DNA of 32,308 bases from a virus. A model generated the notes under the pieces. It had not been told where the DNA came from. It did not search any database and worked only from the letters and a program-made list of their open reading frames with translations. Below, piece by piece: positions 2,677 through 32,308 of the stretch; within the stretch, counting starts at the first letter, position 1, and each line of letters starts with the position of its first letter. The stretch spans positions 1 to 32,308 of the IMG/VR virus record IMGVR_UViG_3300045988_159943. One strand, given 5' to 3'. A program made the translations under genes and the position numbers.

Positions 2677-3045
2677 ATGGAACATAAGCATAAATATTTG
2701 CTCGAAGTGTTTGATGAAAACGAGATGCCATTTCCAGTTAATCAATCAGGTTATGCTGATTTTGATGAAAGAGATACTTTCAATCTCAAATATACTTTAG
2801 TATGTTGGCTTTACGAAAGACTTAGATTTTTTCAAGAAGGAACATGTATTGATTTAAATTTTCATAAATTTGACATTGATGGAGAAGAATTAACTCAAGC
2901 TCAGTGCATTCAGAGAATGATTGATGACTGTAAGATTATTATGGTTGGCAATGACTGGGATGATGGTGAATTTAAGAAAATGGATGCAGCTAAAGATGAT
3001 TTGCTTAAGGTATTAGGTAAAGTTTATTGGGCTATGTGGTGGTAA
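2677..3045 (+). CDS. hypothetical protein
   Basis: 122-aa ORF with GGAGG RBS (2664-2668) 8 nt upstream. Conserved CAATACAAAATTATT motif lies 36 nt upstream. No recognisable domain. Confidence 0.5.
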   Translation: MEHKHKYLLEVFDENEMPFPVNQSGYADFDERDTFNLKYTLVCWLYERLRFFQEGTCIDLNFHKFDIDGEELTQAQCIQRMIDDCKIIMVGNDWDDGEFKKMDAAKDDLLKVLGKVYWAMWW

Positions 3046-3066
3046 ATAAGAAAGGATTGATTAAAC

Positions 3067-3516
3067 ATGACCTTAGAAGTTTTACAAAATGAAATGATTG
3101 CAGCTCTCAAAAGTGGAAATAAGTTTCGTAAGCAAGTAATTTCTACTTTGGTTGATTCTGTTAAGAGCGCAGCAATTAATAAGAATTGTAGAGATAATAT
3201 CACAGAGGACTTAGTTGATGAAGTTCTATTAAAGTGTAAGAAGACATGTCAAGAAATGATTGATACTTGCCCTGCGGGTCGAGTTGATCTTCTAATTCAG
3301 TATCGGAATCAGCTTGATATTGTCAATGAGTTTGCTCCTGTATTGATTGCTGACGAACGAGAGATTAGTATGCTTGTTTCATCTTATGCGAGTGAGGCTG
3401 ATGTAGCACTTGTTAAGGCTAATCGTGGCAAGATTATGAAGATTGCCGCGGAGAAGTTGAAGGGCAAGGCCGATATGGGAATTGTAAGTAAGGTTGTTGG
3501 AGGAATGTTGGCATGA
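3067..3516 (+). CDS. GatB/YqeY-domain protein
   Basis: N-terminus LEVLQNEMIAALKSGNKFRKQVISTLVDSVKSAAINK and C-terminal GKIMKIAAEKLKGKADMGIVSKVVGGML match the YqeY/GatB C-terminal domain pattern. Confidence 0.55.
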   Translation: MTLEVLQNEMIAALKSGNKFRKQVISTLVDSVKSAAINKNCRDNITEDLVDEVLLKCKKTCQEMIDTCPAGRVDLLIQYRNQLDIVNEFAPVLIADEREISMLVSSYASEADVALVKANRGKIMKIAAEKLKGKADMGIVSKVVGGMLA

Positions 3517-3937: not shown

Positions 3938-6299
<2,362 letters not shown>

Positions 6300-8316: not shown

Positions 8317-8509
8317 AATAATTACCTGCTTAATGAAAGGCGAAGAGGTAGACCTAGAAGAAGTTGCTTATAGGTTGGGGGAGTTAACTCAAGTTATTAA
8401 TGATATGATGAACGACCATTATACTGACTATCTTGAATATTACGCTGAAAGATGTTGGCAATTGGAAGAAGAGATTACAAAGTTAAAGAAAGGAGGAAGT
8501 AAATCTTGA
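8300..8509 (+). CDS. hypothetical protein
   Basis: 69-aa ORF. Its stop TGA overlaps a TTG (8506) preceded by AGGAGG (8491-8496). Confidence 0.35.
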   Translation: MMMTSEIITCLMKGEEVDLEEVAYRLGELTQVINDMMNDHYTDYLEYYAERCWQLEEEITKLKKGGSKS

Positions 8510-13635: not shown

Positions 13636-13664
13636 TTGACAATACAAAATTATTGTGGTATAAT
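13636..13664 (+). promoter_or_regulatory. strong sigma-A promoter with extended -10
   Basis: TTGACA (13636-13641), 17-nt spacer, TGgTATAAT (13656-13664). Conserved CAATACAAAATTATT motif occupies the spacer. Confidence 0.65.
13640..13654 (+). promoter_or_regulatory. conserved motif copy 5: CAATACAAAATTATT
   Basis: Exact 15-mer inside the spacer of the TTGACA/TATAAT promoter. Confidence 0.5.
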
Positions 13665-13696
13665 ACCCAAAGAACACCTGAAAGGAAGTGACATTA

Positions 13697-14017
13697 ATGG
13701 AAGACATTAATCACAACGTAGAAGAAGAGAGTTTAGAACTAGTTGACAAACCTGCTTCCGAAATGAGTAATGATCAACTTAAAGAGGCTATCTCTCAACA
13801 GATGGACAAGTTGCGCAGGCAAGGCTTATTACTGGGCGCTCAGTCGATGTGTCGTGTAATTTTGAATAAGATTTATGAGCATCAGGCTAAGCCAGGGAAA
13901 AAGAGTTATAGGGATTATGAAAGATTAGTTTCTGATATCAAACAATTCTGCGAAACTGGATTGTCTAGGAAAGTTGATCTAGATGGAGAAACGTCACCTG
14001 TTGATGAACAGGAATAA
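13697..14017 (+). CDS. hypothetical protein
   Basis: ORF with RBS AAAGGAAG. ATG at 13697 is preferred over the GTG at 13688 used in the ORF track. No recognisable domain. Confidence 0.45.
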   Translation: MEDINHNVEEESLELVDKPASEMSNDQLKEAISQQMDKLRRQGLLLGAQSMCRVILNKIYEHQAKPGKKSYRDYERLVSDIKQFCETGLSRKVDLDGETSPVDEQE

Positions 14018-14050: not shown

Positions 14051-14701
14051 ATGATTGTAACTAAACGTGATGGACGACAAGTTGAGTTTGATAAGCAAAA
14101 AATCAAACTTGCGATTTTAAAGGCCTTTCTTGAAGTAGATGGTGAAGAAACCCCATACGCCAAAGATAAGGCTAGAGATATTGCTAATTATATTGAGGCA
14201 CTTGAACGAGATATGAACGTTGAGGAAATTCAAGATGAAATTGTCAATAAGCTTATGGCAAGTGCGAGAAAAGATGTCGCATCAAGATATGTAGAGTATA
14301 GACATCTGCATAAAATGGCAAGAGAACAGTATAAAGAACTAATGGATGCAGTTAATGAAAAACTATCTGCTTCTAATGTTCAGAATCAAAATGCAAATGT
14401 TGATGAACATAGCTTTGGTGGTCGTATTGGCGAAGCAGCAGATGTCGTCATGAAAAAGATTGCATTAGATTATTGTGTGTCTGAAATGGCAAAGAATAAT
14501 CATTTAAATAATGAAATTTATATTCATGACCTTTCTCATTATGCAGTAGGAGACCACAATTGTCTATCAGTCCCATTTGATGATCTACTTGCAAATGGAT
14601 TTAATACAAGACAGACGGATGTAAGACCTGCTCAGTCTATTAATACAGCATTTCAGCTTGTAGCTGTAATTTTCCAGATTCAATCGTTGCAACAGTTTGG
14701 T
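14051..14701 (+). CDS. nrdD: anaerobic ribonucleoside-triphosphate reductase NrdD, exon 1
   Basis: N-terminal ATP-cone (MIVTKRDGRQVEFDKQKIKLAILKAF). The reading frame ends in a stop two codons after the proposed 5' splice site. Confidence 0.8.
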
Positions 14702-15727
14702 AGATAATACTGCCTGTTAAACCTTTTCGCACTCATCATGCGGGTACAATTTATTGTGCTAACGGGGAAGCCTAAACTTTTATAAGCATGGTAATCCCGT
14801 GGGAAAATAATTGCTTAAAATCAATAATCTCCTTGCAGGAGATGAGTTAATTGATAGTTTATAAAATTACAAATAATATAAATTGCAAAGTATATATTGG
14901 AATTACAACATGCTCATTAGAATATCGGTGGTCAAAGCATATCACAGAGAGCCGTAATGAAAATAATGCAAAACATTTATATAAAGCCATAAGAAAATAT
15001 GGATTAGATAATTTCTCTATTGAGCAAATTGATTCATCGGATGATTTTAAAGAGCTTGGTAGGTTAGAAAGACAATATATTAAACAGTATGATTCTCAAA
15101 ACCCAAACAAAGGATATAATCTCACGGCTGGCGGAGAATCAAATCAATGGGATGCAAATCCTGCATCAAAATTGTCCTATGATGATGTTGTTCAAATTAG
15201 AGAAATATATGCCATGTGTGAATTAAAACTAGAAGAATGTTGGCGACTTTTTAAAGATAAAATATCTTATTCTGGATTTCAAAAAGTATGGAACGGCACA
15301 ACATGGCAAGGAATTATGGATGAGGTATATACCAAAGAGAATATACAAATTCATAGTTCACAAAAATCTAATCCCGGGAGCAAAAACGGTAATGCAAGAA
15401 TGACCGATAATGGTGTTATTGAAGTTCGAAAATATTATGTCGATCATACATTACAAGAAACATATGAAAAATATGGTAAGGCTTATACTAAAGATGGTTT
15501 CAGAGAGACACTCAATAGGACGTATTCTTATTTACCAATTTATCATAAAATGAAAAAATATTGGACTTTAAATGGCGAGATTATTGATATAAACAATTAT
15601 AATCCTGTATCGACTATCCCTGTATCGAGGGAGTAGAATTACTATTGATACGTAATTCGAAATGGGTTTTGCGAGCTTAATGCTCGTTAAGATATAGTCA
15701 GTCCCCATAGAAATATGGGATGAGACG
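14702..15727 (+). mobile_element. group I (IA2-like) self-splicing intron in nrdD carrying a homing endonuclease gene
   Basis: Splits NrdD. Core elements are similar to the T4 td/nrdD introns: CTAACGGGGAAGCCT ... AATCCCGTG (14758-14801) and the S element AAGATATAGTC (15689-15699). P9-like hairpin CCCATAG-AAA-TATGGG (15704-15719). U precedes the proposed 5' splice site (14701) and G precedes the 3' splice site (15727). Boundaries are inferred, not experimentally known. Confidence 0.7.
14851..15636 (+). CDS. GIY-YIG homing endonuclease (intron-encoded)
   Basis: N-terminal IVYKITNNINCKVYIGIT (GIY...YIG), then R and E of the catalytic motif (RWSKHITESRN). TTG start. Its SD AGGAG (14837-14841) lies within a 6-bp hairpin ATCTCC/GGAGAT (14827-14843). 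Confidence 0.8.
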   Translation: MIVYKITNNINCKVYIGITTCSLEYRWSKHITESRNENNAKHLYKAIRKYGLDNFSIEQIDSSDDFKELGRLERQYIKQYDSQNPNKGYNLTAGGESNQWDANPASKLSYDDVVQIREIYAMCELKLEECWRLFKDKISYSGFQKVWNGTTWQGIMDEVYTKENIQIHSSQKSNPGSKNGNARMTDNGVIEVRKYYVDHTLQETYEKYGKAYTKDGFRETLNRTYSYLPIYHKMKKYWTLNGEIIDINNYNPVSTIPVSRE

Positions 15728-17311
15728 GGTGTTTCAGCAACACACTTAGATTGGACGATGGTTCCTTATGTAAGAAAGAGCTTTTATAAGCATTTTAAAG
15801 ATGCAATTAAATATATGGCTGGAATTAGTTTTGAAAAATATGAAGGATCTTTTGAACCTGAAAAACAATCAATTGATGACTTTTTCTATAAGTCCTTTGG
15901 CGACAAAGTATATCAATATGCTCTTGATATGACAGAACGTGAAGCAAAACAAGCAGTTGAAGGAATGTATCATAATCTTAATACACTACAAAGCCGATCT
16001 GGTAATCAGCTTCCATTTAGCTCTGTGAACTACGGTACTTGCACTTTGGCAGAAGGCCGTATGATTATTAAAGCATTACTGAACGCTTCTATCGAAGGCA
16101 CAGGTAGACTACATAAAACCTCTATCTTCCCCTGCGGTATCTTCCAGTGTATGAAGGGAGTTAATAGAATTCCAGGTGACCCTAACTACGACCTTTATCA
16201 ACTTGCTCTGAAGTCTACAGCACAAAGATTGTATCCTAATTATGCAAATGTAGATTGGTCTGGTAATGTTGGATATGATATAAGTGACCCAAGAACATAC
16301 TTCAGCACCATGGGCTGCAGAACCGCAAATGGTTGGGATATTAATGGATTCGGACAACTAAAAGATGGTAGAGGAAATATTTGCCCAACTACAATTATCA
16401 TGCCAACTCTTGCGATGGAAGCCAAAGAATTTGTAGCGAAAAATTCTGAACCTTTCTGTGAGAACTTAGAAGGACTAACAGTAGATAAGTTCTTAGAAAT
16501 TCTTGATATCAAAATTCACGAAGCAAAAGATATGCTTATTGAACGCTTTGATTGGATTTGCTCTCAGAGTCCAGAGTCTGCAAAGTTCATGTATGAGAAT
16601 GGAACAATGAAGGGGTATGACGGCAAAGATATCCGCTCTGCACTAAAGCATGGAACCCTAGCCCTAGGTCAACTCGGCCTTGCTGAAACATTACAGATTC
16701 TAATTGGGTGCGACCATACTACAGAAAAAGGCATGGAGTTAGCAAAGCGCATTGAACAGTTATTCAAAAATAGATGCGCTGAGTTTAAGGAAAAATATAA
16801 ACTCAACTTTGGTGTGTATTATACTCCTGCTGAAAATCTTTGTTATACTGCAATGCAAAAATTTAAAGATAAATATGGTGAGATTCCAAACGTATCTGAC
16901 AAAGATTTCTTTACTAACAGCATCCATGTTCCTGTGTGGAAAGACATTGACCCATTTGAGAAAATTGATATTGAGTCGCAACTAACTGGATACTCTAGCG
17001 CAGGATGCATCACTTATGTTGAACTTGAATCAACTGCTAAACATAACATTGAAGCCCTAGAGACAATTGTTAATTATGCCATGGATCATGATATTCCATA
17101 CTTTGCAATTAATGTACCAAATGATACTTGTATGGATTGTGGTTACTGCGATGAAATCAATGATACATGTCCTATGTGTGGTAGTACTAACATTCAAAGA
17201 TTACGTCGTGTAACGGGATATCTTACCGGAGATTACAAAACTGCATTCAATAAAGGTAAACAACAAGAAACAGAATTGAGAACAAAGCATTCTAAATCTA
17301 CTTGGAGGTGA
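15728..17311 (+). CDS. nrdD: anaerobic ribonucleoside-triphosphate reductase NrdD, exon 2
   Basis: In-frame continuation GVSATHLDWTMVPYV... C-terminal Zn site CMDCGYC...CPMCG and glycyl-radical motif RVTGYLTG. Confidence 0.8.
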   Translation, partial: GVSATHLDWTMVPYVRKSFYKHFKDAIKYMAGISFEKYEGSFEPEKQSIDDFFYKSFGDKVYQYALDMTEREAKQAVEGMYHNLNTLQSRSGNQLPFSSVNYGTCTLAEGRMIIKALLNASIEGTGRLHKTSIFPCGIFQCMKGVNRIPGDPNYDLYQLALKSTAQRLYPNYANVDWSGNVGYDISDPRTYFSTMGCRTANGWDINGFGQLKDGRGNICPTTIIMPTLAMEAKEFVAKNSEPFCENLEGLTVDKFLEILDIKIHEAKDMLIERFDWICSQSPESAKFMYENGTMKGYDGKDIRSALKHGTLALGQLGLAETLQILIGCDHTTEKGMELAKRIEQLFKNRCAEFKEKYKLNFGVYYTPAENLCYTAMQKFKDKYGEIPNVSDKDFFTNSIHVPVWKDIDPFEKIDIESQLTGYSSAGCITYVELESTAKHNIEALETIVNYAMDHDIPYFAINVPNDTCMDCGYCDEINDTCPMCGSTNIQRLRRVTGYLTGDYKTAFNKGKQQETELRTKHSKSTWR

Positions 17312-17315
17312 TACA

Positions 17316-17837
17316 ATGCGCTATATGCAAATTGATAAATCTTCAATTAGCAATGGACTTGGAGTACGTGTTGTTTTATGGTGTGTTGGATGTTCCCAGG
17401 AATGTAAAGGATGCTTTAATCCTGAAACATGGAGTTTTGAAACAGGCAAAGAGTTTAATGAGGCTGCAAAAAAATATTTGTTTGAACAACTAAGTAAACC
17501 ATATATTAAAGGACTTACATTAAGTGGTGGGCATCCTCTTGAAAAACAAAATAGAAGTGATATTTATTTTTTGTTAAAAGAAATTAAAAAACAGTTTTCA
17601 TCAAAAGATATATGGCTATACACTGGTTATGTGTGGGAAGATATTGCAAACATCAGAGAAATTCAACATATTTTATGTTATGTAGATGTTCTTGTTGATG
17701 GTCCTTATATTGAATCTCAACGGGACATTACACTTCCATTCCGGGGGAGTACAAATCAGCGCATCATTGATGTTGGACAATCGTTAGAACAAAATCAAGT
17801 TGTTCTATACAATACAAAATTACTAAAAGGAGAATGA
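17316..17837 (+). CDS. nrdG: anaerobic RNR activating protein NrdG (radical SAM)
   Basis: CxxxCxxC radical-SAM cluster motif (CSQECKGC) near the N-terminus. ~173 aa. Immediately downstream of nrdD. Confidence 0.8.
   Translation: MRYMQIDKSSISNGLGVRVVLWCVGCSQECKGCFNPETWSFETGKEFNEAAKKYLFEQLSKPYIKGLTLSGGHPLEKQNRSDIYFLLKEIKKQFSSKDIWLYTGYVWEDIANIREIQHILCYVDVLVDGPYIESQRDITLPFRGSTNQRIIDVGQSLEQNQVVLYNTKLLKGE
17810..17824 (+). promoter_or_regulatory. conserved motif copy 7: CAATACAAAATTACT
   Basis: Within the 3' end of nrdG coding sequence. 17 nt upstream of the 17842 start. Confidence 0.45.
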
Positions 17838-20418: not shown

Positions 20419-21705
20419 ATGGAAAAGAAAGCATTAAAAAAATTACCTAGAGGGGAGGGATCAATGAGTTATGTAAATCGTAATGGAATAGAATATATTT
20501 GTTATAAAAAAATAATTGGTCATGGCACCAATAAAAAACGTCATTCTGTATATGGACATTCACAACAAGAATGCATAAAACTTATGAAAACTGCAGAAAA
20601 AGAATACAGCAAACAAACTGCTTTATTAAATCCTACACAAGATGATAATGGCAAATACTTATTAAAAACTACTATGAAAGCGTGGATAGACGATAGAAAA
20701 GATAAACTAAAAGCAACAAGCCTTGATACAATCGAATCAACATACACACACCATATAAAAGATAAGCCAATAGGAAATTTGCAATTTTCTAGAGTTACTG
20801 CAGAAGATATAAATAAACACCTTCAAGATTCTAAAAAAGAAGGATATTCTTTATCAACTGTGAAAAAGATTTATAGTTTATGCAATCAATACTTTAACGA
20901 TGTTTATTCTAAAGATCGAGCACATAATCCAATGCTTGAAGTCGAGAGTGTAACAAAAAAAGATTATAATGTACAAATCGAACAAAGCATTTACGATGAA
21001 GACGATGATATTTTTATAGAAACACGAGAGGGGATTAACATCAACACAAGTGCAATTATCCTCAATGATGAAGAAATAACTAGATTTATTAATACTGCAA
21101 GCATGGATTATAAATATGGATATTGTGGATGGAAACATGGGTATGGATTAATTTTTCTTATGTATTCTTTTATGAGAATAGGAGAAGCTATTGCCCTTAA
21201 ATGGAAAGACATTGACTTTAAAAATAAAACAGTTAACATTTATAAAACTGCATCACAAGTAAAAAATCGTGATGGGTCAAAGAAAAAAACTAAATGGATT
21301 ATTACAACAACCAAAACTGACTCTGGTCGTAGATTTAATTTATTATCTGATGCTGCTATGGACGCAATACAAAAGCATTTTGATAGGATATCTAATGGGC
21401 GTAGCTATGAAGAAATGAAAAATCATTATGTGTTTGAAACCAAAAATGGCACGTTCGCCTCTCCATCAAATTTATATCAAAATATTAAATCTATATATAA
21501 GAAAGCGGGTATTAATGAAAAAAAGATTGGATTACATAAATTAAGACACACAGGAATAAGTTACTACATTCGGCATGGAGTTCCTATAGAAATTATATCT
21601 AAAATGGCAGGACATTCGTCCATTGCTGTAACTACAAATATTTATTACGACTTGGTTGAAGACCAATTTAAAGACGCTATAAAAATTATGAATAATATAA
21701 AATAA
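20419..21705 (+). CDS. int: tyrosine site-specific integrase
   Basis: C-terminal catalytic box HKLRHTGISYYIRHGVPIEIISKMAGHSSIAVTTNIY (R...HxxR...Y). N-terminal arm-binding-like domain. 428 aa. Confidence 0.9.
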   Translation: MEKKALKKLPRGEGSMSYVNRNGIEYICYKKIIGHGTNKKRHSVYGHSQQECIKLMKTAEKEYSKQTALLNPTQDDNGKYLLKTTMKAWIDDRKDKLKATSLDTIESTYTHHIKDKPIGNLQFSRVTAEDINKHLQDSKKEGYSLSTVKKIYSLCNQYFNDVYSKDRAHNPMLEVESVTKKDYNVQIEQSIYDEDDDIFIETREGININTSAIILNDEEITRFINTASMDYKYGYCGWKHGYGLIFLMYSFMRIGEAIALKWKDIDFKNKTVNIYKTASQVKNRDGSKKKTKWIITTTKTDSGRRFNLLSDAAMDAIQKHFDRISNGRSYEEMKNHYVFETKNGTFASPSNLYQNIKSIYKKAGINEKKIGLHKLRHTGISYYIRHGVPIEIISKMAGHSSIAVTTNIYYDLVEDQFKDAIKIMNNIK

Positions 21706-22194: not shown

Positions 22195-22218
22195 GGAAGC
22201 ACAATTAAGTGCTTCCCT
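22194..22218. terminator. bidirectional terminator between convergent RHH gene and tail-fiber gene
   Basis: Perfect 9-bp stem GGGAAGCAC/GTGCTTCCC with AATTA loop. Flanked by an A-run upstream and TTTAATTTTT downstream. Overlaps the last codons of the fiber gene. Confidence 0.65.
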
Positions 22219-24295
22219 TTAATTTTTGAATCTCTGCCCTTAGTTCAGAAATTTCATTTTGTAATTTTTGAATCATATAAGTGTTCAATGCAATGAATTC
22301 AGAATACCTTAGTCCATAATCATAAACCGCATGTTTGTTTTCATCTACAACTGTATTGCCATTATCATCAACTCTAACATCTTTACAGAACCCCGCAAAA
22401 TCTTTACCTGATAAACCAAGCGTATGAAGTGATTCTTCAATATCCTGTGCGACAAAACCATAATGTGTTCTATCACTAGTTCCAGATGTCATTTTATATG
22501 TAACTGGTTTTAATTCATTAAATAGTTGCTCTTGAATATCAGACATATCTTCTATATCTTTTTTTTTATTTTTATCTGATGTATCTATACTTCCATTTTC
22601 CGCATAAAGTTGATTCCACCTACGACCACTTGATCCAAGATTAACAATACCACTATTACTCGAATCTGGAACATATACACTAGTGTTATGTATAGCTAGT
22701 CCAGCCTCTGCCCCAGCGGAAGTATCTTGATTAGTTCTGATGTATGCAATATTTACACCACTTGTATTTTGTTCTGTATAAAATGATGCTTTGATACTTT
22801 CACCAACACTAATTTTACCATCAAATTCAGCAGGCCACGCACATTCAAATTTACTTTGTGTTGCGTCATCTACTGTTATTGTAGATAATTTACCAATAGA
22901 TACCCCGTTGTTGTATCTCGCAATATTGATTGGCCTACCGGTAGCTGGCATTGTATAAATACCACTATTAACAGTTGTTCCCACTGCATCAATTACAGTA
23001 AATCTAAACTGATAACTTGTACTTGTTGCAAATGTCATAGTAGATACTGTATCTGTTCCACTTGTAATATCTCCAACCACAGTCCATGAAGTTGAACCCA
23101 ATTTACGATAATACCATTTTAGTGAGCTAATACTATTCTTTCCACTAACGCTTTGTATAGCTGCAGTAATACGTCCTAAAGCATAAGTTCCAGATGCACT
23201 TACTGTCCCATCAGATTCACATCGAGTAACACGTCCACTTGACAATGTTGGCTTCGAATAGCTATATACAGTAATTGTTTTTGTGTCTGCTCCAGATCTC
23301 CCACGAGAATCTTTTACCGTTGCAGTATATTCCAAGCCCGTACCAGATGTATTTAATGTTACTGTTGTACTTGCAGAAGTAGAAGATACGCCAGAGCCAC
23401 TTAAGCTATAAGATGATATAGATGCACCAGAGCCTGCTTTGCCTGTAATAACAAATTTGGCTTTAGAAATACCTTTAAGATATACATTTAAATTATTATT
23501 GTATGTAGGTGTTATTGCCAAAGAAACTGTTGGATTATATATATCTGTATCAGGAACCTTTATTGAAATTGACGCAGTATCAGTTGAACCAATTTTTGTA
23601 CTATAACCACTATCGCTATAAGTATAAAGATAACATTTTAATGTACCAGAACTACTAGAGGGTACCCACGATGCAGGTAATGTAATACTATATAACTTTT
23701 GACTTGTGCTACCAGCTTTACCTAATTCAACAGTTTTCTTCTTTGAACTATCCACATAAAACGCTAACTTGTGATAATAACTACTTACAGTTGGAGTATA
23801 ATAAACTTTAATGGTACTATCAACATTAGCAGAAGAAATTGTTGTTCCGCTGCTATTAGTAATCTTATCAATTTCTGCATTTCTAGGAATAGTTTTTAAT
23901 TTAATGCTAGTAGCAGAAAGTGTAATACTACCAGGGCCCCATCCAGAACAATTTAACAAAGAAGATGTATTACTACAACTAAATGTAATTGTTTTTTCGC
24001 CATTGCTGTCATGTGTAATTGTCTTTGTACCAGAAGCTAATGTAATAGTATATCCAGTGTTACCCTTATCATCAATATTAATTCTTTGCGTCTTAGAATA
24101 TGTCGAACCTGCCATATTGAAACCAACAGTGACAGAGCTAACTGTATCGAAATCGTAAGAATCAGTTAACTGTTGAAGCTTCAAAGCGGCAGTTACGGTG
24201 CTTGTATTTGCTGCGATATCTTGCGTATATGAATATTCAATATATACTTTATACCAATCAGAATGTTGTCCTATCTTACAATTAATCGTTGCCAC
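22205..24295 (-). CDS. tail fiber / receptor-binding protein with C-terminal intramolecular chaperone (peptidase S74) domain
   Basis: C-terminal DTSDKNKKKDIEDM...LKPVTYKM...HYGFVAQDIEESL matches the endosialidase/tail-spike auto-cleaving chaperone domain. N-terminal and central regions are Ser/Thr/Gly-rich beta repeats. Confidence 0.7.
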   Translation of the reverse strand: MATINCKIGQHSDWYKVYIEYSYTQDIAANTSTVTAALKLQQLTDSYDFDTVSSVTVGFNMAGSTYSKTQRINIDDKGNTGYTITLASGTKTITHDSNGEKTITFSCSNTSSLLNCSGWGPGSITLSATSIKLKTIPRNAEIDKITNSSGTTISSANVDSTIKVYYTPTVSSYYHKLAFYVDSSKKKTVELGKAGSTSQKLYSITLPASWVPSSSSGTLKCYLYTYSDSGYSTKIGSTDTASISIKVPDTDIYNPTVSLAITPTYNNNLNVYLKGISKAKFVITGKAGSGASISSYSLSGSGVSSTSASTTVTLNTSGTGLEYTATVKDSRGRSGADTKTITVYSYSKPTLSSGRVTRCESDGTVSASGTYALGRITAAIQSVSGKNSISSLKWYYRKLGSTSWTVVGDITSGTDTVSTMTFATSTSYQFRFTVIDAVGTTVNSGIYTMPATGRPINIARYNNGVSIGKLSTITVDDATQSKFECAWPAEFDGKISVGESIKASFYTEQNTSGVNIAYIRTNQDTSAGAEAGLAIHNTSVYVPDSSNSGIVNLGSSGRRWNQLYAENGSIDTSDKNKKKDIEDMSDIQEQLFNELKPVTYKMTSGTSDRTHYGFVAQDIEESLHTLGLSGKDFAGFCKDVRVDDNGNTVVDENKHAVYDYGLRYSEFIALNTYMIQKLQNEISELRAEIQKLKGST

Positions 24296-24299
24296 TTAA

Positions 24300-27200
24300 T
24301 CAACTCCCTTGTGTCTGAATTAAAATTGAGAAGCTACCATTATTTTCTGCTTGGATAACTAAACTATTATTTGTAGATGCATTATCAACACGAAGTTCTT
24401 TTACTGTTGCTGGGCCATTAACATCAAGTATGCCATCTTCTCCATCAAGACCAGTAATTTCTGCACTTGAAATATAAAGCTTTTTGTCTGAAATATATGC
24501 AACTTCTGCATCTCCAACCAATGGGTCAGTATCCTGTTGCATAAATGACCACCTATCATTTAATAACCTTGTGTAAATTGTACTATTACCATCTTTAATG
24601 ACCAAACCTTTATCGTTACTAAACTCAAAATGTTGATTTAGGTCGCCTTCAATTGAACCCACTCTAGTATTTAGATTTTCATTTTGTTGATCGTATTTGT
24701 CTAATGCACTAATCCAATCAATAGATTTATAAACACCATTGCCATCATTAATAGAACGCAATACAGAGCCGGGTTCAACTAAATCAATCTCTATAGTTCC
24801 AATAATTTCTGCAGAAATAATATAGTCATTACTCACAAGGCCTACAAGGGCATCTTCGTTAGTAACGACATTTTTATTTATCTCTCCAATTAATGTTCCC
24901 GTGGAATCAACCGCCGTACCATCTTGAATATAACCTACAATAGTAAAAGCTTTATTAAAATCTTCATAGTAAATACCAATAGCAGTACCATTTGAATCAA
25001 GAATAAGTTCATCTTCAATTGTACCGATAATATTTCCGTCAGAATCCAATACACTAGTTTTATCATCACTAATAGTGCCCATACTTGTTGGAGCAATGAT
25101 GTCTCCATTACTGTCAACAATATTACCCTGCTCGTCCGTCTGAATGTAATCTCGTTCTCCAACTATCCATATTTCATCAGTTAAATAGTTGCCATGAATC
25201 GGACAAGAAGTATAAACAATATTATCTTCATTTTCTATGTAATCCTGAATATCTTGCGCAGTTAAATTCCCGATTTTGCTATCGCCACCCATTGTGACGT
25301 TGCCAAATTCATCAACCATAAAAGTTCCATTACCAATATTTATTGTGCCACCAACTATTGTTGAACCTTCAATATAACCAGATAATACAGCTTGCGCTAA
25401 TAATCCATAGAATGTTGTGCCATCTATCTCAAATTCTCCAAGACCGGTTTGCGAAGTTTTAAATCCATCTGTTGAAAAAAGAATATTGTTATTGACAATC
25501 CAAGCTTGATAAGGAGATACTTCGCCAGTTTCTTTATTAACTATTTTTGTTAAACGTATTCCACTCTTATCAATAACAACACCTTGATCAGATGAATAAA
25601 GCCCATTTGTTGCATCTAGTAAACCTTGTTGAATCTTTAAATCAGTTTGAGTTGCTAAATCTGCACCTTTATTCCAGTATGAAGCATTACTTGCTACAGA
25701 TTTACCTGCGCTTAATGCTTGAGATAATAAATCTGCATGAATACTGGATGGAGTTTTTATATTGGTCAATTCCCCAAATGAGCATGAAAAATCAGAAAAA
25801 TCGTCAAAATTAATACTAACTTCTAGTAGTCTGGCACGTTTAATATAATCAGGTCTAATAGCTATATTAATTAAATTACCGAGCTGAAATTGATTAACTA
25901 TTGGCTCAAACTCTGAGAGTGCATAAATGTTCGCCATATCCATAGAGAACTCTAGTTTTGGCTCACATAATTTTGACAACTCAATACGTCCACATTCCAA
26001 TAATTCTTTTTCTAGCTTTATGATGATATCACGACTATCTGTTTCAGTAATTAAAAAATTATCGTCGGTATACTCATCTTCTCGCAAAAAAGCGCTCAAA
26101 CGAATTCTTTGTTGTGGAGTAAAATTATTAACAATCAACAAATCTTCTTGGATTTGGGCGTTTCTTGTACTATATATATCACGTTGGTCTTCATATTCTT
26201 GGATTTTATTTTCTCTATCAGTTTTTTCCTTTGTTAATGCATTAAGCAATAAAGTTACTACATAGTACTTTTGATAATATTCATGGCTGGGCTGGTTTGC
26301 ACCAACATCTACATATTGCTGTTGATCACTTTTATATGTAGAAATATATGTCTTTATCATACTAAGACCAATTTGATCAAACATTTCATCTAAGAATGTT
26401 TTTACTGCTGTGTCTTTTGCTTCTGTGGTATTAGCTTTTGATAACGCACTGACAAGAGTGGAAAAAGTATATTTTTCTACAAATGCAAAATGCTCCGCTA
26501 AAGGTCTAAGTTGGGATACATCTTTTGAACTACCAGACATATAATAAACTTGTAAGGCCGATAATAAATTTGCAACCTTATCTGCATTTAAATCATTGCC
26601 CAAAAGTGAATAATAACGTGAAACATTTGCACTGTACTGATCTGGCAATGTAACTTCTTTATAATAGTAATCTGGATCAACACCGCCACGCACATAATAT
26701 GTTCCTACCGTTTGACTATTAACGTTGCTTGCAATAGAATATTTTAATGAAAGCCTATTTTCTTCATATAATATTCTATCATCTAGTTCTAATATTTTGC
26801 TTGCATTTTCTGCGTATTCATTTTGATACCCATTAGACTTCTGAATATAAAGGGTGTATGCATCATATAGTTCTTGCCCCATCCAATCAACAGTATAATA
26901 GTAAGATAAGTCCGTAATATATGGCAATCCCATATTTACTTCTTCAATTCCAAGGTCTTCGGCTCCTCTAACAGTTAATACAGTTTTGATGTCTTCTGCG
27001 CTATAACTAACATTAACTTCTTGTGCTAAATTATCAAATGATATATATACGTCTGTCATCCATTTTGCTTGAGAACCATCCACTACTTCGATGAGTGCAC
27101 CTTTTGCTGGTGCAGTGTTCAACATCAGTATGCCAGTAGTTTTATTATAATTATATCCCGTCGTCTTATAGCTATCAATTGACACAGTTTCGATAGTTTC

Positions 27201-27950
27201 ATATCTGGAAGGTATAGTAAATTGTTTTGTAACACCATCTCCAATGAATTTTGTTATTAAAGATTCTGCATATATAGATATTTCATTGTTTTCTGTATCA
27301 AAAACAAAAAAACAATTAAATTTATCACTAATATCATTTACAAGAAAATCATATACAGAGGTTCGTTCAATTTCAAATGTCCGTGTCATAGTTTTTAAAG
27401 ACTCATCAATATGTCCGAAAGACCAACCATATATTTTTTGCATACACAAATGCAATAAACTCAGCTCTGGAATCTCTGGATTATATAAACTAACAGGGAC
27501 AAGTTCTGTTTGATGATTCTCTGCATACGCAACCTCAATCGACTCAACCTCGCCTGTGTTTATATATACTTCTTCTATATATTTTTGAGATAGAGTATAT
27601 TCAAGACTATAAGCTGTAATGTTTTTAACTTCTCTGATGCCATCGCTAACAATCTCTGGCTCTTGAATTTCAAAATAGCCGAACCCTTCTACATATAGTA
27701 AACGTAATCCTTCGATTTTATCATAAAATGGATTAATTTTTTGTTCACCAGATAAAAAATCTTCATAGGTTCTTCCTATAGTACATTCTATCTCACTGTA
27801 TGCATTAAATTTAAATGTGCCTGATAAATTAATTGGGTCTAATTGACATAGTTTTGTTTTGTCAGGTTGACATAAAAATACACGGGGTCTTGTATATGTC
27901 CAGGCATCAGTATATGTAGCTGGCAACAAATCCTTTGGTAACTTATACAA
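24300..27950 (-). CDS. tail-associated lysin / tail tip protein (Tal, prophage tail endopeptidase family)
   Basis: 1216 aa. N-terminal MYKLPKDLLPATYTDAWTYTRPRVFLCQP... resembles the Siphoviridae Tal (Prophage_tail) N-terminal domain. Sits between Dit and the fiber. Confidence 0.65.
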   Translation of the reverse strand: MYKLPKDLLPATYTDAWTYTRPRVFLCQPDKTKLCQLDPINLSGTFKFNAYSEIECTIGRTYEDFLSGEQKINPFYDKIEGLRLLYVEGFGYFEIQEPEIVSDGIREVKNITAYSLEYTLSQKYIEEVYINTGEVESIEVAYAENHQTELVPVSLYNPEIPELSLLHLCMQKIYGWSFGHIDESLKTMTRTFEIERTSVYDFLVNDISDKFNCFFVFDTENNEISIYAESLITKFIGDGVTKQFTIPSRYETIETVSIDSYKTTGYNYNKTTGILMLNTAPAKGALIEVVDGSQAKWMTDVYISFDNLAQEVNVSYSAEDIKTVLTVRGAEDLGIEEVNMGLPYITDLSYYYTVDWMGQELYDAYTLYIQKSNGYQNEYAENASKILELDDRILYEENRLSLKYSIASNVNSQTVGTYYVRGGVDPDYYYKEVTLPDQYSANVSRYYSLLGNDLNADKVANLLSALQVYYMSGSSKDVSQLRPLAEHFAFVEKYTFSTLVSALSKANTTEAKDTAVKTFLDEMFDQIGLSMIKTYISTYKSDQQQYVDVGANQPSHEYYQKYYVVTLLLNALTKEKTDRENKIQEYEDQRDIYSTRNAQIQEDLLIVNNFTPQQRIRLSAFLREDEYTDDNFLITETDSRDIIIKLEKELLECGRIELSKLCEPKLEFSMDMANIYALSEFEPIVNQFQLGNLINIAIRPDYIKRARLLEVSINFDDFSDFSCSFGELTNIKTPSSIHADLLSQALSAGKSVASNASYWNKGADLATQTDLKIQQGLLDATNGLYSSDQGVVIDKSGIRLTKIVNKETGEVSPYQAWIVNNNILFSTDGFKTSQTGLGEFEIDGTTFYGLLAQAVLSGYIEGSTIVGGTINIGNGTFMVDEFGNVTMGGDSKIGNLTAQDIQDYIENEDNIVYTSCPIHGNYLTDEIWIVGERDYIQTDEQGNIVDSNGDIIAPTSMGTISDDKTSVLDSDGNIIGTIEDELILDSNGTAIGIYYEDFNKAFTIVGYIQDGTAVDSTGTLIGEINKNVVTNEDALVGLVSNDYIISAEIIGTIEIDLVEPGSVLRSINDGNGVYKSIDWISALDKYDQQNENLNTRVGSIEGDLNQHFEFSNDKGLVIKDGNSTIYTRLLNDRWSFMQQDTDPLVGDAEVAYISDKKLYISSAEITGLDGEDGILDVNGPATVKELRVDNASTNNSLVIQAENNGSFSILIQTQGS

Positions 27951-27984
27951 ATATTATCACTCCTTTCTCAAAATATTAAAGTTG

Positions 27985-29304
27985 TTATAAATATCTCACT
28001 TCTACTATAGACGCTTGTATGGTCTGGTCTACACTTGGCTTATTACCAATTGCATATACTGTTACAGTGCCTGCATTATTTTCTGTAATCAAAGAAGCAT
28101 CATCTTTTTGCAACATAGCTACTTGTACAGTAGTTGGTTGAAGGTCTATTCTACTTCTTTCTGTAACACCATTAACAGTTACAACTTGTGAATAAGGAGA
28201 TTTTGTCCCCGCCCAATTATCTGCAAGTAATGAAATATAAGTTATCTTTTGCACGTCATCATCATCCTCTTCATTAATATAATCACAACACTGTGGGCTA
28301 TTAAGAATATTTTCAATATCAACTGCACAATCACCAATCTTAATTGGATATCTATACTTAAACGTAATTGTACCCTCACCAGCGCCGTTAACTGCTATTT
28401 TGTTTATGCCCGGTTGCAATCTAGGCCAAACAAAATTAAAATTATCTCCAAATATCTTTCCTGGAATACTAGAAGAAATAAATTGTCCAGAGTTAAATGA
28501 AATTACTTCGCCACCAGATACACCCATAACACTGGTTTCTTCGTTTAATTCTAAATTTTTTATAGTTAATGAACCAAGAGCATCACCACTTTGATTATTA
28601 CTATACTCAACGTCTAGATTGATATATGTATATAGGTCATCAGTTTTATTATCAATTTGCACCATGTTGCCTTGAACTTTATATATAACACCATAATCGG
28701 TAATATCAAATGGTTCTGGCATACCATTGTCTATATACAATACTCCACTATCATCAATGCCGAAATATGGTATAGCTTCATTTTGATAAACCACGCCATT
28801 TTCATCAATTCCAAAGCCATCATTCATAAGATCATATTTAATTTCTTGTATTGCAGAATAAGCCCATGGATTTACACTTGTAAATGTAGCTACAAGACCA
28901 ATTATTTTTGCATCAAGTTTACGCTGTTTTACGTTTGTAATACGACCAAAAAATGAGTATTTAACTTCATCGCCCTCATAAAAATCAAGCCATGAATTTG
29001 TCCTTACCCCGGTTAGCCATTTTAATATATCTCTATTTTCTGCTACAGAAAAATCACTACCATCTGGTTTGATTAAAGTTATATTAATCGTAGCTACAGA
29101 ATCATATCGGGCCCCATAATCAAACTTTTTAGTACCATTATAGTAATCATCCGTAGAGGCTGTCATTGACAAAAATGTATCAACTTCACCATCATCTGGA
29201 GTAAATGTAGTTATAATTAAATGTTTGTCTCTTGCGCTATTTTGTTTCAAATAAGTAAAAGATGAATGGTATGAACTCATAAGATTAGGCTCACTTCCTT
29301 TCAT
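27985..29304 (-). CDS. distal tail protein (Dit)
   Basis: 439 aa, located between TMP and Tal, the conserved siphovirus order TMP-Dit-Tal. Confidence 0.6.
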   Translation of the reverse strand: MKGSEPNLMSSYHSSFTYLKQNSARDKHLIITTFTPDDGEVDTFLSMTASTDDYYNGTKKFDYGARYDSVATINITLIKPDGSDFSVAENRDILKWLTGVRTNSWLDFYEGDEVKYSFFGRITNVKQRKLDAKIIGLVATFTSVNPWAYSAIQEIKYDLMNDGFGIDENGVVYQNEAIPYFGIDDSGVLYIDNGMPEPFDITDYGVIYKVQGNMVQIDNKTDDLYTYINLDVEYSNNQSGDALGSLTIKNLELNEETSVMGVSGGEVISFNSGQFISSSIPGKIFGDNFNFVWPRLQPGINKIAVNGAGEGTITFKYRYPIKIGDCAVDIENILNSPQCCDYINEEDDDDVQKITYISLLADNWAGTKSPYSQVVTVNGVTERSRIDLQPTTVQVAMLQKDDASLITENNAGTVTVYAIGNKPSVDQTIQASIVEVRYL

Positions 29305-29327
29305 ATCTTAAATTGTTTGTATAAATA

Positions 29328-29357
29328 AAAGAGAGGTAGCACAAACTACCTCTCTTT
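29328..29357. terminator. perfect 12-bp hairpin in the TMP-Dit intergenic region (partial terminator/attenuator or RNA stability element)
   Basis: AAAGAGAGGTAG-CACAAA-CTACCTCTCTTT, flanked by A/T-rich sequence on both sides. Confidence 0.45.
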
Positions 29358-29366
29358 TATATTGTT

Positions 29367-32308
29367 TTATCTTACATATTTACGAATCTGTGAATTAATA
29401 TTCTTCATATACTTATCCATTTGCTTCTCAACTGTCTTTGCTAAATTTGGTAGTGTGTCATTTGTAACAGTATCAATATGTACAACCTCAGCAATACTAG
29501 CATCAACATGAATTTCATTATTAGTAACATGAGAGATATTAATTTTTGGTCTATTATTTTCTAGTGCTTGCGTTGGGTCAAGCGCCAAATTCATAAGTTT
29601 TTCAGTTAAGTCTGCAGGAATAATACCAGTTCCTTTTTTAATATATTCTAGTCTACCATTTTTCCCTGGAACTAATTGTAGCTCTTCACCTAACTCATCA
29701 ACCCATGCAAGTTGGTTTTCTTTTGCACCAATTGTTCCTTTTGCATATCCTTTAAGGTCAGAAATTTTTACCCATGAATATATTTCTTTTAACAGTACTT
29801 GCTTCCCGCCATATCCAACTTGTTGAACGGTGTACTGATTTCCTTTTACCCAATTTGGAATTTTTATATTAGAAGAATTGCCACCATAATATTGTGCATC
29901 AGAATCAATAACAACTTTATCTCCTTTGACTGGCGCATCTTTGATGTTTTGATTTGTGTTTGTATTTGATGGCTCCTGTGGCGGCTTTTTATTTTGTTCA
30001 ATAAGAGCATTTGATTTATCAATGACCTGTTTGTTTATATCAGCTTGTTCAATTGAAGATAGTTCTTCTTGCGCCTTTTTGTCAGCGATTTCTTGCATTT
30101 TCTTTTCTTCGTCAATAATTGCTTGCAACTGTTCTGCGAAAGAATCTTTTAACCCTTTTAACTTTTCTTGATAAGAAGAAATTGCATTCTCTCCATCTTT
30201 CCACGGTTTTACGATAGAATCAGAAATAGTAATTCCGTACTGTTGCCCAAGAGCATCAATCTCTGCAAGTACTGTATCTGCTTTTGACTTAACAGTTTCA
30301 AGAGAATCTGAAACAAGAGCTTCTGTATCTTTTAAGCTTTCATCAAGAGCATCCATTTTATCATTTTGACTCTTTTCATACTCTTCTCCATTTTTCTCAA
30401 GGGCATTTTTAGTCATTTCTAAAGAGCGTTCATAATAAGTCTCTTCTAAGTCTGCTTCTGCTTTTGCTTTTTCTGCTTCTAACTTTCTCCTTTGAGACAT
30501 AGCGGACAGAGATGTATTTCCGTTAAGTGCGGCGAGTTTTCTGTTGATAGTTGCAATTTCTTTTTGTTGCTCATTAACAGATTTCTCAAAGTCGTACAAG
30601 TCTTTATCTGCGTCAAGGGCCTCTTTCTTTTTATCAATAAGTTCTTTATAGGCATCAATTTCTTTTTCAATACCATCTTTAACTGCATCTATTCTTGTTT
30701 TATTTAAATCGATAATAGCATCTTGAGCATCGTTATAGGCTCCAACAGAATCCATGACACCTTTTTTGAGTTCAGCTTCTTTTTCTATAAATTCATCTGG
30801 ACTATATTGATCTCTAGATTTATATAAATCCTTTAATGCCTTGCTGTATTGTTGAATTTTTGTCTGGGCAACTTCCATCTGTTGCGCCGCAACACCGATG
30901 GCAGCAATACCTTTGTCTGTCCATGCGCCATTGTCATCAACAACATCATCAAGACGAGTGAAATTATCATATAAGAAAGATAGTTCAGAATCTAAGTTAT
31001 CAAATCTATCAATGAGCTTATCAAGATTATCCCATTTTATATTTTGAATCTCATTATTGAACTCTTCTACTGCAGTTTTGCTATCATAAATTTCTGCTTG
31101 AAGTTGTTCAAATTCGGAAATTTTTTTGAGATAATCAGGATCTCCTACTTTGATATCTCCTTTTGCTACATCTTCTGCTAGCTGATTGATTAAAGTTTCT
31201 AATTCTTCCTGCTTCTTTTTGATAATAGCTTCCTCGTTGGCAATAAGCTGTTTGTACCAAGTTTCAGACGCTCTCATGCCCATTTCTTCCATAAGATCTT
31301 TAGCAGAATTAAGTACATCTGACTTAGAACTAATAATATCAATTAGATTATTATACTCTTCAGCAATATCATCCAATTGCTCGATTCTATAAGCTGTCAT
31401 TTGAGCAATGGCTTCCAAATAACCAATTTCTGCATCATCGGCTTTATCTGCCCAATCACGATATTCTTGGATAGCTTCAGCATATTCCTGTTCTGTATCA
31501 CCAACAAAATCGACAATTTCAATAGCTCCGTTTTTAGCCCACTCACGATATTGTTCTGGAACTTTTTCTAAGGCTGCATTTGCTCTTTCATTATATTTTT
31601 CTGCAGCAGCAAGATAAGTTTCTGCTTTGTTTGACTCTGCTTGGACTAGTTTGTCATAGAGATCATCTTTCTCTTTACGCTTAGTACCATCACCAACAAG
31701 AGTTTCAATTTTAGCAGTACTCTTCGAAATAATTTGCTCAATTTCAGTAAGTTTGAATTCAATGAAATCTACTACTTGCTCAGCAGCATCTTCAGTAGCT
31801 TCTGTGTTCTTCTTAGCAGTACTGTTTGATTTAGAAGAAGATTTGCTTGAACTAGAAGAACTACCGCTTCCACCACCACTTCCTGGGGGTATACGAGTCA
31901 AGTGTGCATTTCCTGTTACGAAGGCCTTTCCACGACCTGTTACATAACCATTTTCTAACAAAGCTCTTGTTTGTATATGGTTAAATATAATTGCATCTTT
32001 TGGAAGATTAACAAATTCTGCACCATAATCACCAACGGTATAGTATCTTCCGGTATTTGGATCTACAACTAGCTCCTGGCCAAGTTCTCCAACTAATGCA
32101 TTTTTTTCTGCTCTTGGAATACCCCAATCTCCACTGGCATGTGCAGTTCCACTAGAATGGGCGGTGCCATTAACAACAACATCACCCCAATTAATAGTAC
32201 CGTTGGCTGTAAAGGTTGGGGCCGTGTATGGGGCACTCTTCCATTTAACAGTGCCTGTCTTTACAAGAGTTTTTGCCATCCAATCTTCAACTTTTTTAGC
32301 ATTGTTTT
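29367..32308 (-). CDS. tail tape measure protein (N-terminus probably beyond window edge)
   Basis: Long coiled-coil protein with Ser/Gly-rich linker (GSGGGSGSSSSSSKSSSKS), immediately upstream of Dit on the - strand. The reading frame stays open from the ATG at 32279 to the window edge (...NAKKVEDW-M-AKTLVK). Confidence 0.65.
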   Translation of the reverse strand, partial: NNAKKVEDWMAKTLVKTGTVKWKSAPYTAPTFTANGTINWGDVVVNGTAHSSGTAHASGDWGIPRAEKNALVGELGQELVVDPNTGRYYTVGDYGAEFVNLPKDAIIFNHIQTRALLENGYVTGRGKAFVTGNAHLTRIPPGSGGGSGSSSSSSKSSSKSNSTAKKNTEATEDAAEQVVDFIEFKLTEIEQIISKSTAKIETLVGDGTKRKEKDDLYDKLVQAESNKAETYLAAAEKYNERANAALEKVPEQYREWAKNGAIEIVDFVGDTEQEYAEAIQEYRDWADKADDAEIGYLEAIAQMTAYRIEQLDDIAEEYNNLIDIISSKSDVLNSAKDLMEEMGMRASETWYKQLIANEEAIIKKKQEELETLINQLAEDVAKGDIKVGDPDYLKKISEFEQLQAEIYDSKTAVEEFNNEIQNIKWDNLDKLIDRFDNLDSELSFLYDNFTRLDDVVDDNGAWTDKGIAAIGVAAQQMEVAQTKIQQYSKALKDLYKSRDQYSPDEFIEKEAELKKGVMDSVGAYNDAQDAIIDLNKTRIDAVKDGIEKEIDAYKELIDKKKEALDADKDLYDFEKSVNEQQKEIATINRKLAALNGNTSLSAMSQRRKLEAEKAKAEADLEETYYERSLEMTKNALEKNGEEYEKSQNDKMDALDESLKDTEALVSDSLETVKSKADTVLAEIDALGQQYGITISDSIVKPWKDGENAISSYQEKLKGLKDSFAEQLQAIIDEEKKMQEIADKKAQEELSSIEQADINKQVIDKSNALIEQNKKPPQEPSNTNTNQNIKDAPVKGDKVVIDSDAQYYGGNSSNIKIPNWVKGNQYTVQQVGYGGKQVLLKEIYSWVKISDLKGYAKGTIGAKENQLAWVDELGEELQLVPGKNGRLEYIKKGTGIIPADLTEKLMNLALDPTQALENNRPKINISHVTNNEIHVDASIAEVVHIDTVTNDTLPNLAKTVEKQMDKYMKNINSQIRKYVR

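Follow-up and report, generated by a model that had tools for sequence, protein, structure and literature searches.

What separates the two halves of nrdD in the viral genome record IMGVR_UViG_3300045988_159943? Throughout this 32,308-nucleotide (nt) stretch, which we analysed whole and call the window, nrdD is the one gene whose interruption concerns us: the gene, which encodes the class III ribonucleotide reductase NrdD, is broken by 1,026 nt at positions 14702-15727. An earlier interpretation made from the letters alone (the sequence-only reading) had proposed that the insert is a group I intron resembling that of the phage T4 td gene, that it carries a GIY-YIG homing endonuclease gene, and that a hairpin covers the ribosome-binding site of this gene. 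The intron anatomy, exact junction, and covariation described below, together with orthologous copies and intronless alleles, support this proposal, to which we assign a probability of about 0.9.

Exon 1 of nrdD (14051-14701) encodes the ATP-cone and the N-terminal part of NrdD, with Pfam matches to ATP-cone and to positions 2-104 of NRDD, and has the 3' end ...CAG UUU GGU. Exon 2 (15728-17311) encodes the rest of the protein, including the MGCRT active-site region, the zinc-ribbon cysteines, and the RVTGYL glycyl-radical motif, and matches NRDD positions 105-562 (E = 1e-116) as well as Gly_radical. The NRDD profile is continuous across the splice (104|105), with no position lost or duplicated. 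The frame that opens at 14051 terminates shortly after exon 1, at a TAA (14705-14707) two codons into the intron, and the NrdD frame resumes at 15728 with GVSATHLDWTMVPYV (GGU GUU UCA); the sequence-only reading had noted the stop at 14707 and the resumption at about 15728. Joining 14701 to 15728 (...CAGUUUGGU joined to GGUGUUUCAGC) yields a 744-residue NrdD that reads QQFGGVSATH, with the junction GGU|GGU falling between the conserved glycine codons G217 and G218. The active-site, zinc-site, and glycyl-radical motifs are all intact.

The spliced peptide QQFG|GVSA aligns without a gap to three NrdD structures, reading HQYGGTTFA in the T4 enzyme (1H78), EMHGGQAIP in 8P23, and SQYGGCTAD in 9D3X. 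Three phage alleles are uninterrupted at the same site: that of viral contig L099, which reads CAATTTGGC GGCGTGAGT (peptide QQFGGVSATH), that of Thomasclavelia phage TR-TP2 (QEFGGVSATH), and that of viral contig L089 (TTTGGT GGAGTC, peptide QQFGGVAASH). Because the structures align ungapped and the uninterrupted relatives carry a matching peptide, we place the splice between the two conserved glycine codons. The sequence-only reading could not settle the FG|GVS junction or the P1 pairing by eye and had suggested aligning the spliced protein to T4 NrdD; that alignment now fixes the junction at G217|G218, and both P1 and P10 have been identified. The Gly217 codon (14699-14701) is GGU in all intron-containing alleles, matching the requirement for a U·G pair at the splice site, and its counterpart in intronless alleles is GGC in L099 (~8410-8412), GGA in TR-TP2 (codon 220 of record L004), and GGU in L089.

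The insert itself has the structure of an IA2, td-like group I intron on the plus strand, extending from A14702 to the terminal (omega) guanosine G15727, with boundaries drawn from the alignment and the intronless alleles. Its first paired element, P1 (14699-14714), joins exon GGU and intron AG (14699-14703) to CUGCC (14710-14714) and sets U14701 opposite G14712 to give the U·G pair of the 5' splice site. P1 is identical in orthologues, and other members of the intron family pair (G)GGU| with a GCC(C) guide. An overlapping guide segment, AAUACU (14706-14711), pairs with GGUGUU (15728-15733), the first six bases of exon 2, to form P10. Taken together, P1 and P10 seat the ligated GGU|GGUGUU on the guide AAUACUGCC as nine contiguous pairs, and an analogous P10 pairing (AAUAUCU/AGAUGUU) is found in L060. 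The intron ends ...GAGACG at 15727.

Every core helix is intact in the window copy. The 5' strand of P3, AAACCU (14719-14724), pairs with GGGUUU (15664-15669) and is followed by a P3.1 hairpin (CGCA/UGCG, 14728-14742) and by a second, variable hairpin, P3.2 (14746-14757). J3/4 (UAA), P4 (ACGGGG/UCCCGU), and P5/P5a occupy 14760-14800, with the P4/P5/P4' segment CTAACGGGGAAGCCT...AATCCCGTG at 14759-14801. P6 pairs GGG (14801-14803) with CCU (15604-15606), and P6a pairs AUAAUUG (14807-14813) with CAAUUAU (15594-15600), thereby enclosing the endonuclease gene. Beyond it lie the P7 5' strand GACUAU (15612-15617), P7.1 (15618-15631), P7.2 (15636-15658) with its 9-nt loop UAUUGAUAC (15643-15651), a conserved CGAAAU joining segment between P7.2 and the P3 3' strand, and P8 (15671-15687). 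The P7 3' strand AUAGUC falls within AAGAUAUAGUC (15689-15699), the region of the S element AAGATATAGTC, and the intron closes with a P9 hairpin, CCCAUA-GAAA-UAUGGG (15704-15719), capped by a GAAA tetraloop. The T4 td/nrdD-like core segments, S element, and P9-like hairpin listed by the sequence-only reading were all recovered at, or within a few bases of, the positions it gave. The contiguity of the NRDD profile combined with these elements is far beyond chance.

Comparison with T4 bears out the td-like assignment. The 3' half of the core aligns base for base to the T4 td and nrdD introns (CGACUAUC..GAGUAG..CGAAA..AGAUAUAGUC), and the 5' half, CUAACGGGG..AAUCCCGUG, aligns to CUAA(A)CGGGG..AAUCCCGUG of both; within td itself, the J3/4-P5 region matches CUAAACGGGG...AAUCCCGUG and the P7-P7.2 region matches CGACUAUCCC..GGGAGUAG..CGAAA. 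The 5' side departs from td in one respect, in that the strand pairing with P3' lies upstream of the two hairpins and not beside J3/4, and the canonical IA2 order P1-P2-P3-J3/4-P4 is not followed. Since P3.1 is a recognised optional pairing (PMC3873408), we treat the displaced P3 as a variant that lacks P2 and carries P3.1/P3.2-like hairpins. A canonical P3 directly before J3/4 was rejected: across the family, the 9 nt at that position pair with P3' no better when matched (-1.30 kcal/mol) than when mismatched (-1.57 kcal/mol; p = 0.85). An extension of P3 through UUUC/GAAA was also dropped, the GAAA being part of a joining segment conserved in td-type introns that have no UUUC. The (U)AUCA loop of P3.1 is complementary to UGAU in the 9-nt loop of P7.2, which suggests a loop-loop contact between the two hairpins; covariation between these loops is not a valid test on our sequence set, as both served to select its members.

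The core could be examined in many relatives. Scanning IMG/VR for a family pattern composed of P7, the P7.2 loop, and P7' (GACTATC..CTATTGATACG..ATAGTC) returned at least 120 viral contig loci (L007-L126), in nrdD, topoisomerase, DnaE-like, and other host genes. Among the matches listed, about half of the pattern instances have the P4 motif within 3 kb upstream, and the P6 inserts range from 19 nt, with no open reading frame (ORF), to ~1.1 kb. We aligned 41 non-redundant members with MAFFT after deleting their P6a inserts. In this alignment, 94.5% of structure cells are standard pairs, compared with 33-42% after the 3' partners have been displaced by 1-3 columns, and both partners vary in 31 of the 49 pairs; the observed pairing and compensation were not attained in any of 500 column shuffles. 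P4 carries a compensatory G-C to A-U change in 16 of the 41 members at one pair and in two at the adjacent pair, P6 (GGG/CCU) is 100% paired with compensatory changes, and P7.1 and P7.2 are 99.4% and 99.0% paired with three and six compensatory pairs, respectively. All four pairs of P3.1 (94.5% paired) and all six pairs of P9 show compensatory changes. P7 is invariant. The P7.2 loop and the AUCA loop were used to select and parse the set, and their invariance is partly by construction.

For helices that MAFFT aligned poorly, we asked whether two strands form a more stable duplex when both come from one intron than when they are drawn from different introns. By mean duplex energy, same-intron pairing is better for P3 (-6.64 versus -2.98 kcal/mol, p = 7e-22), P8 (-7.44 versus -2.29, p = 9e-29), P7.2 (-7.6 versus -1.5, p = 2e-31), P9 (-6.5 versus -2.4, p = 1e-20), and P5 (-6.8 versus -4.7, p = 1e-6), and with P7.1 included the p values for these helices span 1e-6 to 2e-31. 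The same test supports the variable P3.2 hairpin (-6.34 versus -0.99 kcal/mol, p = 4e-25).

Some members of the family are direct orthologues. Four or more diverged phage lineages (L077/L094/L011/L045, L101, L059, and L051) have the same intron, with its endonuclease gene, at this nrdD position, with nucleotide identity to the window over the aligned nrdD-intron region of ~77% for the L077 group, ~72% for L101, and ~68% for L059. All orthologous copies read UUUGGU|AGA... at the 5' boundary and ...ACG|GGUGU at the 3' boundary, and compensatory substitutions in P7.1, P7.2, P8, and P9 distinguish them from one another. When spliced at this junction, L077, L094, and L059 each yield a full-length NrdD with 70-75% amino-acid identity to that of the window. 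The window exons are open, and their NrdD shares 66-75% protein identity with relatives bearing the same intron. Divergence of the intron and endonuclease gene (67-89% identity) is comparable to that of the exons (70-76%), which suggests long co-residence with nrdD and not a recent invasion. In L101, the orthologous intron (minus strand, ~4283-3126) has a longest internal ORF of 171 residues, and its endonuclease is probably decayed. L101 also has a second insertion of ~1.2 kb in exon 2 (minus strand, ~2232-1015), near the equivalent of window positions 16656-16670.

The gene enclosed by P6a (14851-15636) was correctly recognised as a GIY-YIG ORF in the sequence-only reading. It encodes 261 residues from a UUG start to a UAG stop (15634-15636), and matches Pfam GIY-YIG PF01541 at 32.8 bits (threshold 22.6, E = 8e-8) and PHROG 7168, 'homing endonuclease', at E = 7e-31. 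A weak match to the catalytic domain of I-TevI (1MK0, E = 0.02) aligns the catalytic residues, keeping the (I)VY...YIG tyrosines, Arg26, His30, the Glu of 'LER', and the Asn of 'GYN'. Weak matches of the C-terminus to cytokine receptors are noise. Intact 261-residue orthologues are present in L077, L011, and L094. The last ~14 codons of the gene traverse P6a', P6', J6/7, P7, and P7.1, with the UAG stop inside GGGAGUAG. The residues encoded by P7.1 vary, from IPVSRE in the window (15618-15636) to ILESGE and ISESGE in orthologues, and since they change alongside compensatory P7.1 pairs, it is the RNA and not the protein that is constrained at this end of the gene.

Upstream of the gene, AUCUCCU (14827-14833) pairs with AGGAGAU (14837-14843) in a hairpin (14827-14843) that holds the Shine-Dalgarno (SD) sequence GGAG (14838-14841) in its 3' arm. 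The SD does lie in a hairpin, as the sequence-only reading had it, with a stem of 7 bp (-8.1 kcal/mol) and not the 6 bp given there. L077 and L101 have counterparts of this hairpin, and in a related intron of Enterococcus phage EF1 the SD region is covered by a different one. Hairpin-sequestered SD sequences of intron endonucleases have a precedent and a rationale in T4 (PMC2988022, PMC3984707).

These features suggest how the element may work; splicing, cleavage, and translational control are here inferred from sequence. In the nrdD pre-mRNA, exon-1 GGU would pair with the guide GCC, with U·G at the splice site, and free guanosine would attack after U14701. The 3' exon GGUGUU would then dock on AAUACU as P10, the terminal G15727 would be exchanged, and ligation of GGU to GGU would restore G217-G218 of the 744-residue NrdD. 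The exon-1 stop two codons into the intron would keep ribosomes out of the ribozyme. Translation of the endonuclease would be expected to unfold the ribozyme core, because the 3' end of its gene overlaps P6', P7, and P7.1; the 7-bp SD hairpin and the weak UUG start probably keep this translation low on unspliced nrdD transcripts, an arrangement that mirrors the one shown for I-TevI. Once made, the P6a-loop endonuclease is predicted to cleave nrdD alleles that have no intron, close to the GG junction, and thereby to promote homing, with the junctions of L099, L089, and TR-TP2 as candidate targets (for example, CAGCAGTTTGGTGGAGTCGCA).

Several observations weigh against parts of this account. 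A default Rfam scan of the whole window found no match, and a permissive scan gave Intron_gpI (RF00028) only 27.3 bits (E = 1.2e-4) over the 3' part of the intron, below the gathering score of 50. A family member without an ORF, from Lactococcus phage LW81, scores just 15.3 bits. The exon contributes 3 bp to P1. Pfam and the PDB gave no match to a known DNA-binding domain for the last 160 residues of the endonuclease. The stability of the SD hairpin is modest (z = -2.1, with 6 of 200 shuffles folding as well), and its stem is unchanged in orthologues and shows no covariation. A scan for an internal sigma-70 promoter of the endonuclease gene gave 22 matches against 20.1 in shuffles, using a sigma-70-like consensus that may not be the phage's own, and a search upstream of the ORF for an operator of the I-TevI kind found nothing that resembled the homing site more closely than shuffled sequence does. 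Of the T4 control scheme, the hairpin is the one part supported in the window intron.

The Rfam result carries less weight than it seems to. Run the same way, T4 nrdD scores 105 bits, whereas T4 td reaches 40.3 and T4 nrdB 35.7; because these two proven introns also fall below 50, the low score of the window intron does not refute its assignment to group I. The gathering score fails to discriminate where P6a holds a large ORF, and the 15.3 bits of the ORF-less LW81 member indicate that the general group I model recognises this family poorly. The sequence-only reading had named a sub-threshold Rfam score as grounds for giving up the intron; the score of 27.3 is indeed below threshold, but the yardstick is invalid, as it would discard td and nrdB too.

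Could nrdD instead be a fractured gene, in which a free-standing GIY-YIG cassette has been inserted, nothing is spliced, and two NrdD polypeptides assemble? Such an event has a precedent in Aeromonas phage Aeh1, where insertion of mobE split nrdA into nrdA-a and nrdA-b (PMC3653736), and here the exon-1 frame has a stop of its own and an ATG is present in exon 2 at 15758. Starting at that ATG, however, would forfeit the 10 conserved residues GVSATHLDWT, and no clear SD lies upstream of it. A cassette of this kind also leaves unexplained why a covarying group I core forms from the ~240 nt of non-coding sequence around the endonuclease gene, why the boundaries obey the rule of U before and terminal G at the end of the intron, why a single guide pairs with both exons, and why the RNA structure is kept by compensatory changes in at least four lineages. 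We consider a fractured gene very improbable. Nor do the frames allow an intein or another insertion at the protein level, frequent as inteins are in phage ribonucleotide reductase genes (PMC3653736): the exon-1 frame meets TAA two codons past the junction, the endonuclease ORF lies in another frame with its own start, and no intein or Hint domain was found. The reading frames refute this alternative outright.

It is also conceivable that the intron is real but has decayed or depends on a helper, splicing itself inefficiently, with nrdD either a pseudogene or spliced with the assistance of a protein from the host or the phage. The short exon part of P1 and the low Rfam score would fit, and the truncated-looking endonuclease ORF in L101 shows that parts of the element can decay. 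Against this, the window copy retains all its core helices, its exons are open and as similar to same-intron relatives as stated above, the NrdD motifs and the downstream nrdG are intact, and low Rfam scores are shared with the proven td and nrdB introns of T4. A decayed or dependent intron is hardly more probable than a fractured gene, and we retain the td-like intron with its GIY-YIG gene as the explanation of the split.

Group I introns with homing endonucleases are a classic feature of phage ribonucleotide reductase genes. The sequence-only reading had described the window intron as convergent with, or related to, the T4 nrdD (sunY) intron; the kinship holds at the level of a related IA2-type ribozyme, whereas the site and the layout differ, the ORF lying in P6a as in td. 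Using the T4 record, we located the T4 nrdD junction in the Tyr180 codon (...AUGAGU|UAACG...CAUUG|AUGAAG), which aligns to window His299, and the window site corresponds to G124|G125 of T4 NrdD. This mapping rules out a shared site. Because T4 nrdD is split ~82 codons downstream, the window intron is, on this alignment, an independent insertion by a related ribozyme. Like the window intron, the T4 sunY intron sits in the nrdD host gene family and combines an IA2-type core with a GIY-YIG endonuclease, but I-TevII is encoded 3' of the catalytic core and not in P6a, and the Rfam scores are 105 versus 27 bits. An ORF-less intron in L089 (13612-13905) has a core nearly identical to that of T4 sunY/td and occupies the nrdD site ...HNL|NTLQ (CU|U), 7 nt downstream of the T4 nrdD site.

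The resemblance to T4 td and I-TevI is closer in architecture. Beyond near-identical core motifs (CUAA(A)CGGGG...AAUCCCGUG, CGACUAUCCC..GGGAGUAG..CGAAA, and AGAUAUAGUC), the td intron likewise has P7.1 and P7.2, as expected of IA2 (the T4 td/Twort type), a GIY-YIG gene in the P6a loop whose 3' end reaches the core, an SD sequence in a hairpin, and an in-frame stop soon after the 5' splice site (PMC2988022). The two differ in host gene (td versus nrdD) and in the 9-nt P7.2 loop UAUUGAUAC, a feature of the window intron. The td intron has P2, with the P3 5' strand directly before J3/4, whereas the window intron lacks P2 and has two intervening hairpins. Unlike in td, no late promoter or operator was detectable in the window by the sigma-70-like and homing-site similarity scans, and the two endonucleases are only distantly related (E = 0.02 to 1MK0).

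In layout, the closest precedent is the nrdF intron of Bacillus thuringiensis with its endonuclease I-BthII. It too belongs to group IA and interrupts a ribonucleotide reductase gene within a Bacillota lineage, with P7.1 and P7.2 and a GIY-YIG ORF of ~257 residues that starts in the P6a loop and spans P7, and it splices in vivo (PMC2248736); it differs in residing on a bacterial chromosome and in nrdF (class Ib) and not in a phage nrdD (class III). Among the ribonucleotide reductase genes surveyed in phage genomes, nrdD was split most frequently, including in Lactococcus phage 949 (PMC3653736), and in the gut 'Jug' jumbo phages nrdD is fragmented by group I introns in 95 of 104 genomes, with splicing seen in metatranscriptomes (PMC12880540). 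The closest NrdD to that of the window (70.8% identity), from TR-TP2, which is also the nearest relative in culture, is again encoded by a split gene, but at a third site, around residues 420/421 (...YFST|MGCRT), and with an HNH gene in the insert (L004 2766-3713). The TR-TP2 record annotates two separate nrdD coding sequences.

Relatives of the window intron are easily overlooked. Megablast of the nrdD region against phages gave no match, and relatives emerged only with sensitive blastn and tblastn. Sensitive blastn placed core pieces in unannotated gaps of Enterococcus phage EF1, Lactococcus phage LW81, and Enterocloster phage CB457P1. The EF1 intron (L002 ~1205-2150) also carries a GIY-YIG ORF, the LW81 intron (L003 2833-3120) is 289 nt long and splits topoisomerase B, and in the CB457P1 record (L001 ~2895-3330 and ~4400-4830) a DnaE-like gene has two inserts. 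These introns, all of the window intron's family or one related to it, are not annotated, and the flanking coding sequences are labelled hypothetical, duplicated, or split-gene. A stronger proposal would make the window intron one of an abundant, under-annotated structural subclass of IA2-like phage introns, comprising at least 120 IMG/VR copies, lacking P2, bearing two hairpins between P3 and J3/4 and kissing loops, largely missed by the general Rfam group I model (15-27 bits), and including a previously unrecorded G|G insertion site. We regard this proposal as tentative and, in its full form, rather unlikely.

The surroundings of nrdD form a replication and nucleotide-metabolism module, with genes for a RecJ-like protein, an NAD-ligase, a superfamily 1 (SF1) helicase, DnaE, NrdD, and NrdG. 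The nrdG gene (17316-17837), encoding the radical-SAM activase, follows nrdD. A perfect extended sigma-70 promoter, TTGACA-17-(TG)TATAAT (13636-13664), lies upstream of a small ORF (13688-14017) and nrdD, and likely marks the start of the nrdD-nrdG transcript. After the module comes a tyrosine integrase gene (20419-21705), and 22205-32279 holds four very large ORFs (439-1,216 residues) on the opposite strand; a tRNA scan of the window found none. NrdD is most similar to that of Thomasclavelia ramosa phages and DnaE to that of a [Clostridium] innocuum phage, both hosts being of the Erysipelotrichia type. From these matches it is plausible that the phage infects gut Bacillota, in keeping with the 'Firmicutes phage' label of the sequence-only reading.

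The two nrdD fragments and the intervening region are better annotated as one spliced gene plus an intron-encoded endonuclease. The intron is real but an ordinary example of a well-known mobile element, its mild novelty lying in the nrdD site and in the size of a family that scans miss, and it leaves the current understanding of group I introns unchanged. As the family is large and not called by the standard Rfam scan, gene calling in gut Bacillota phages would benefit from a covariance model built for it. Counting the window intron, nrdD of a single phage clade now has a third intron site, in line with the preference that homing elements are known to show for conserved ribonucleotide reductase motifs. 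If the subclass proposal were true, the G|G pair in the Q-x-x-G-G motif would be a homing site beside at least two other intron sites in the clade.

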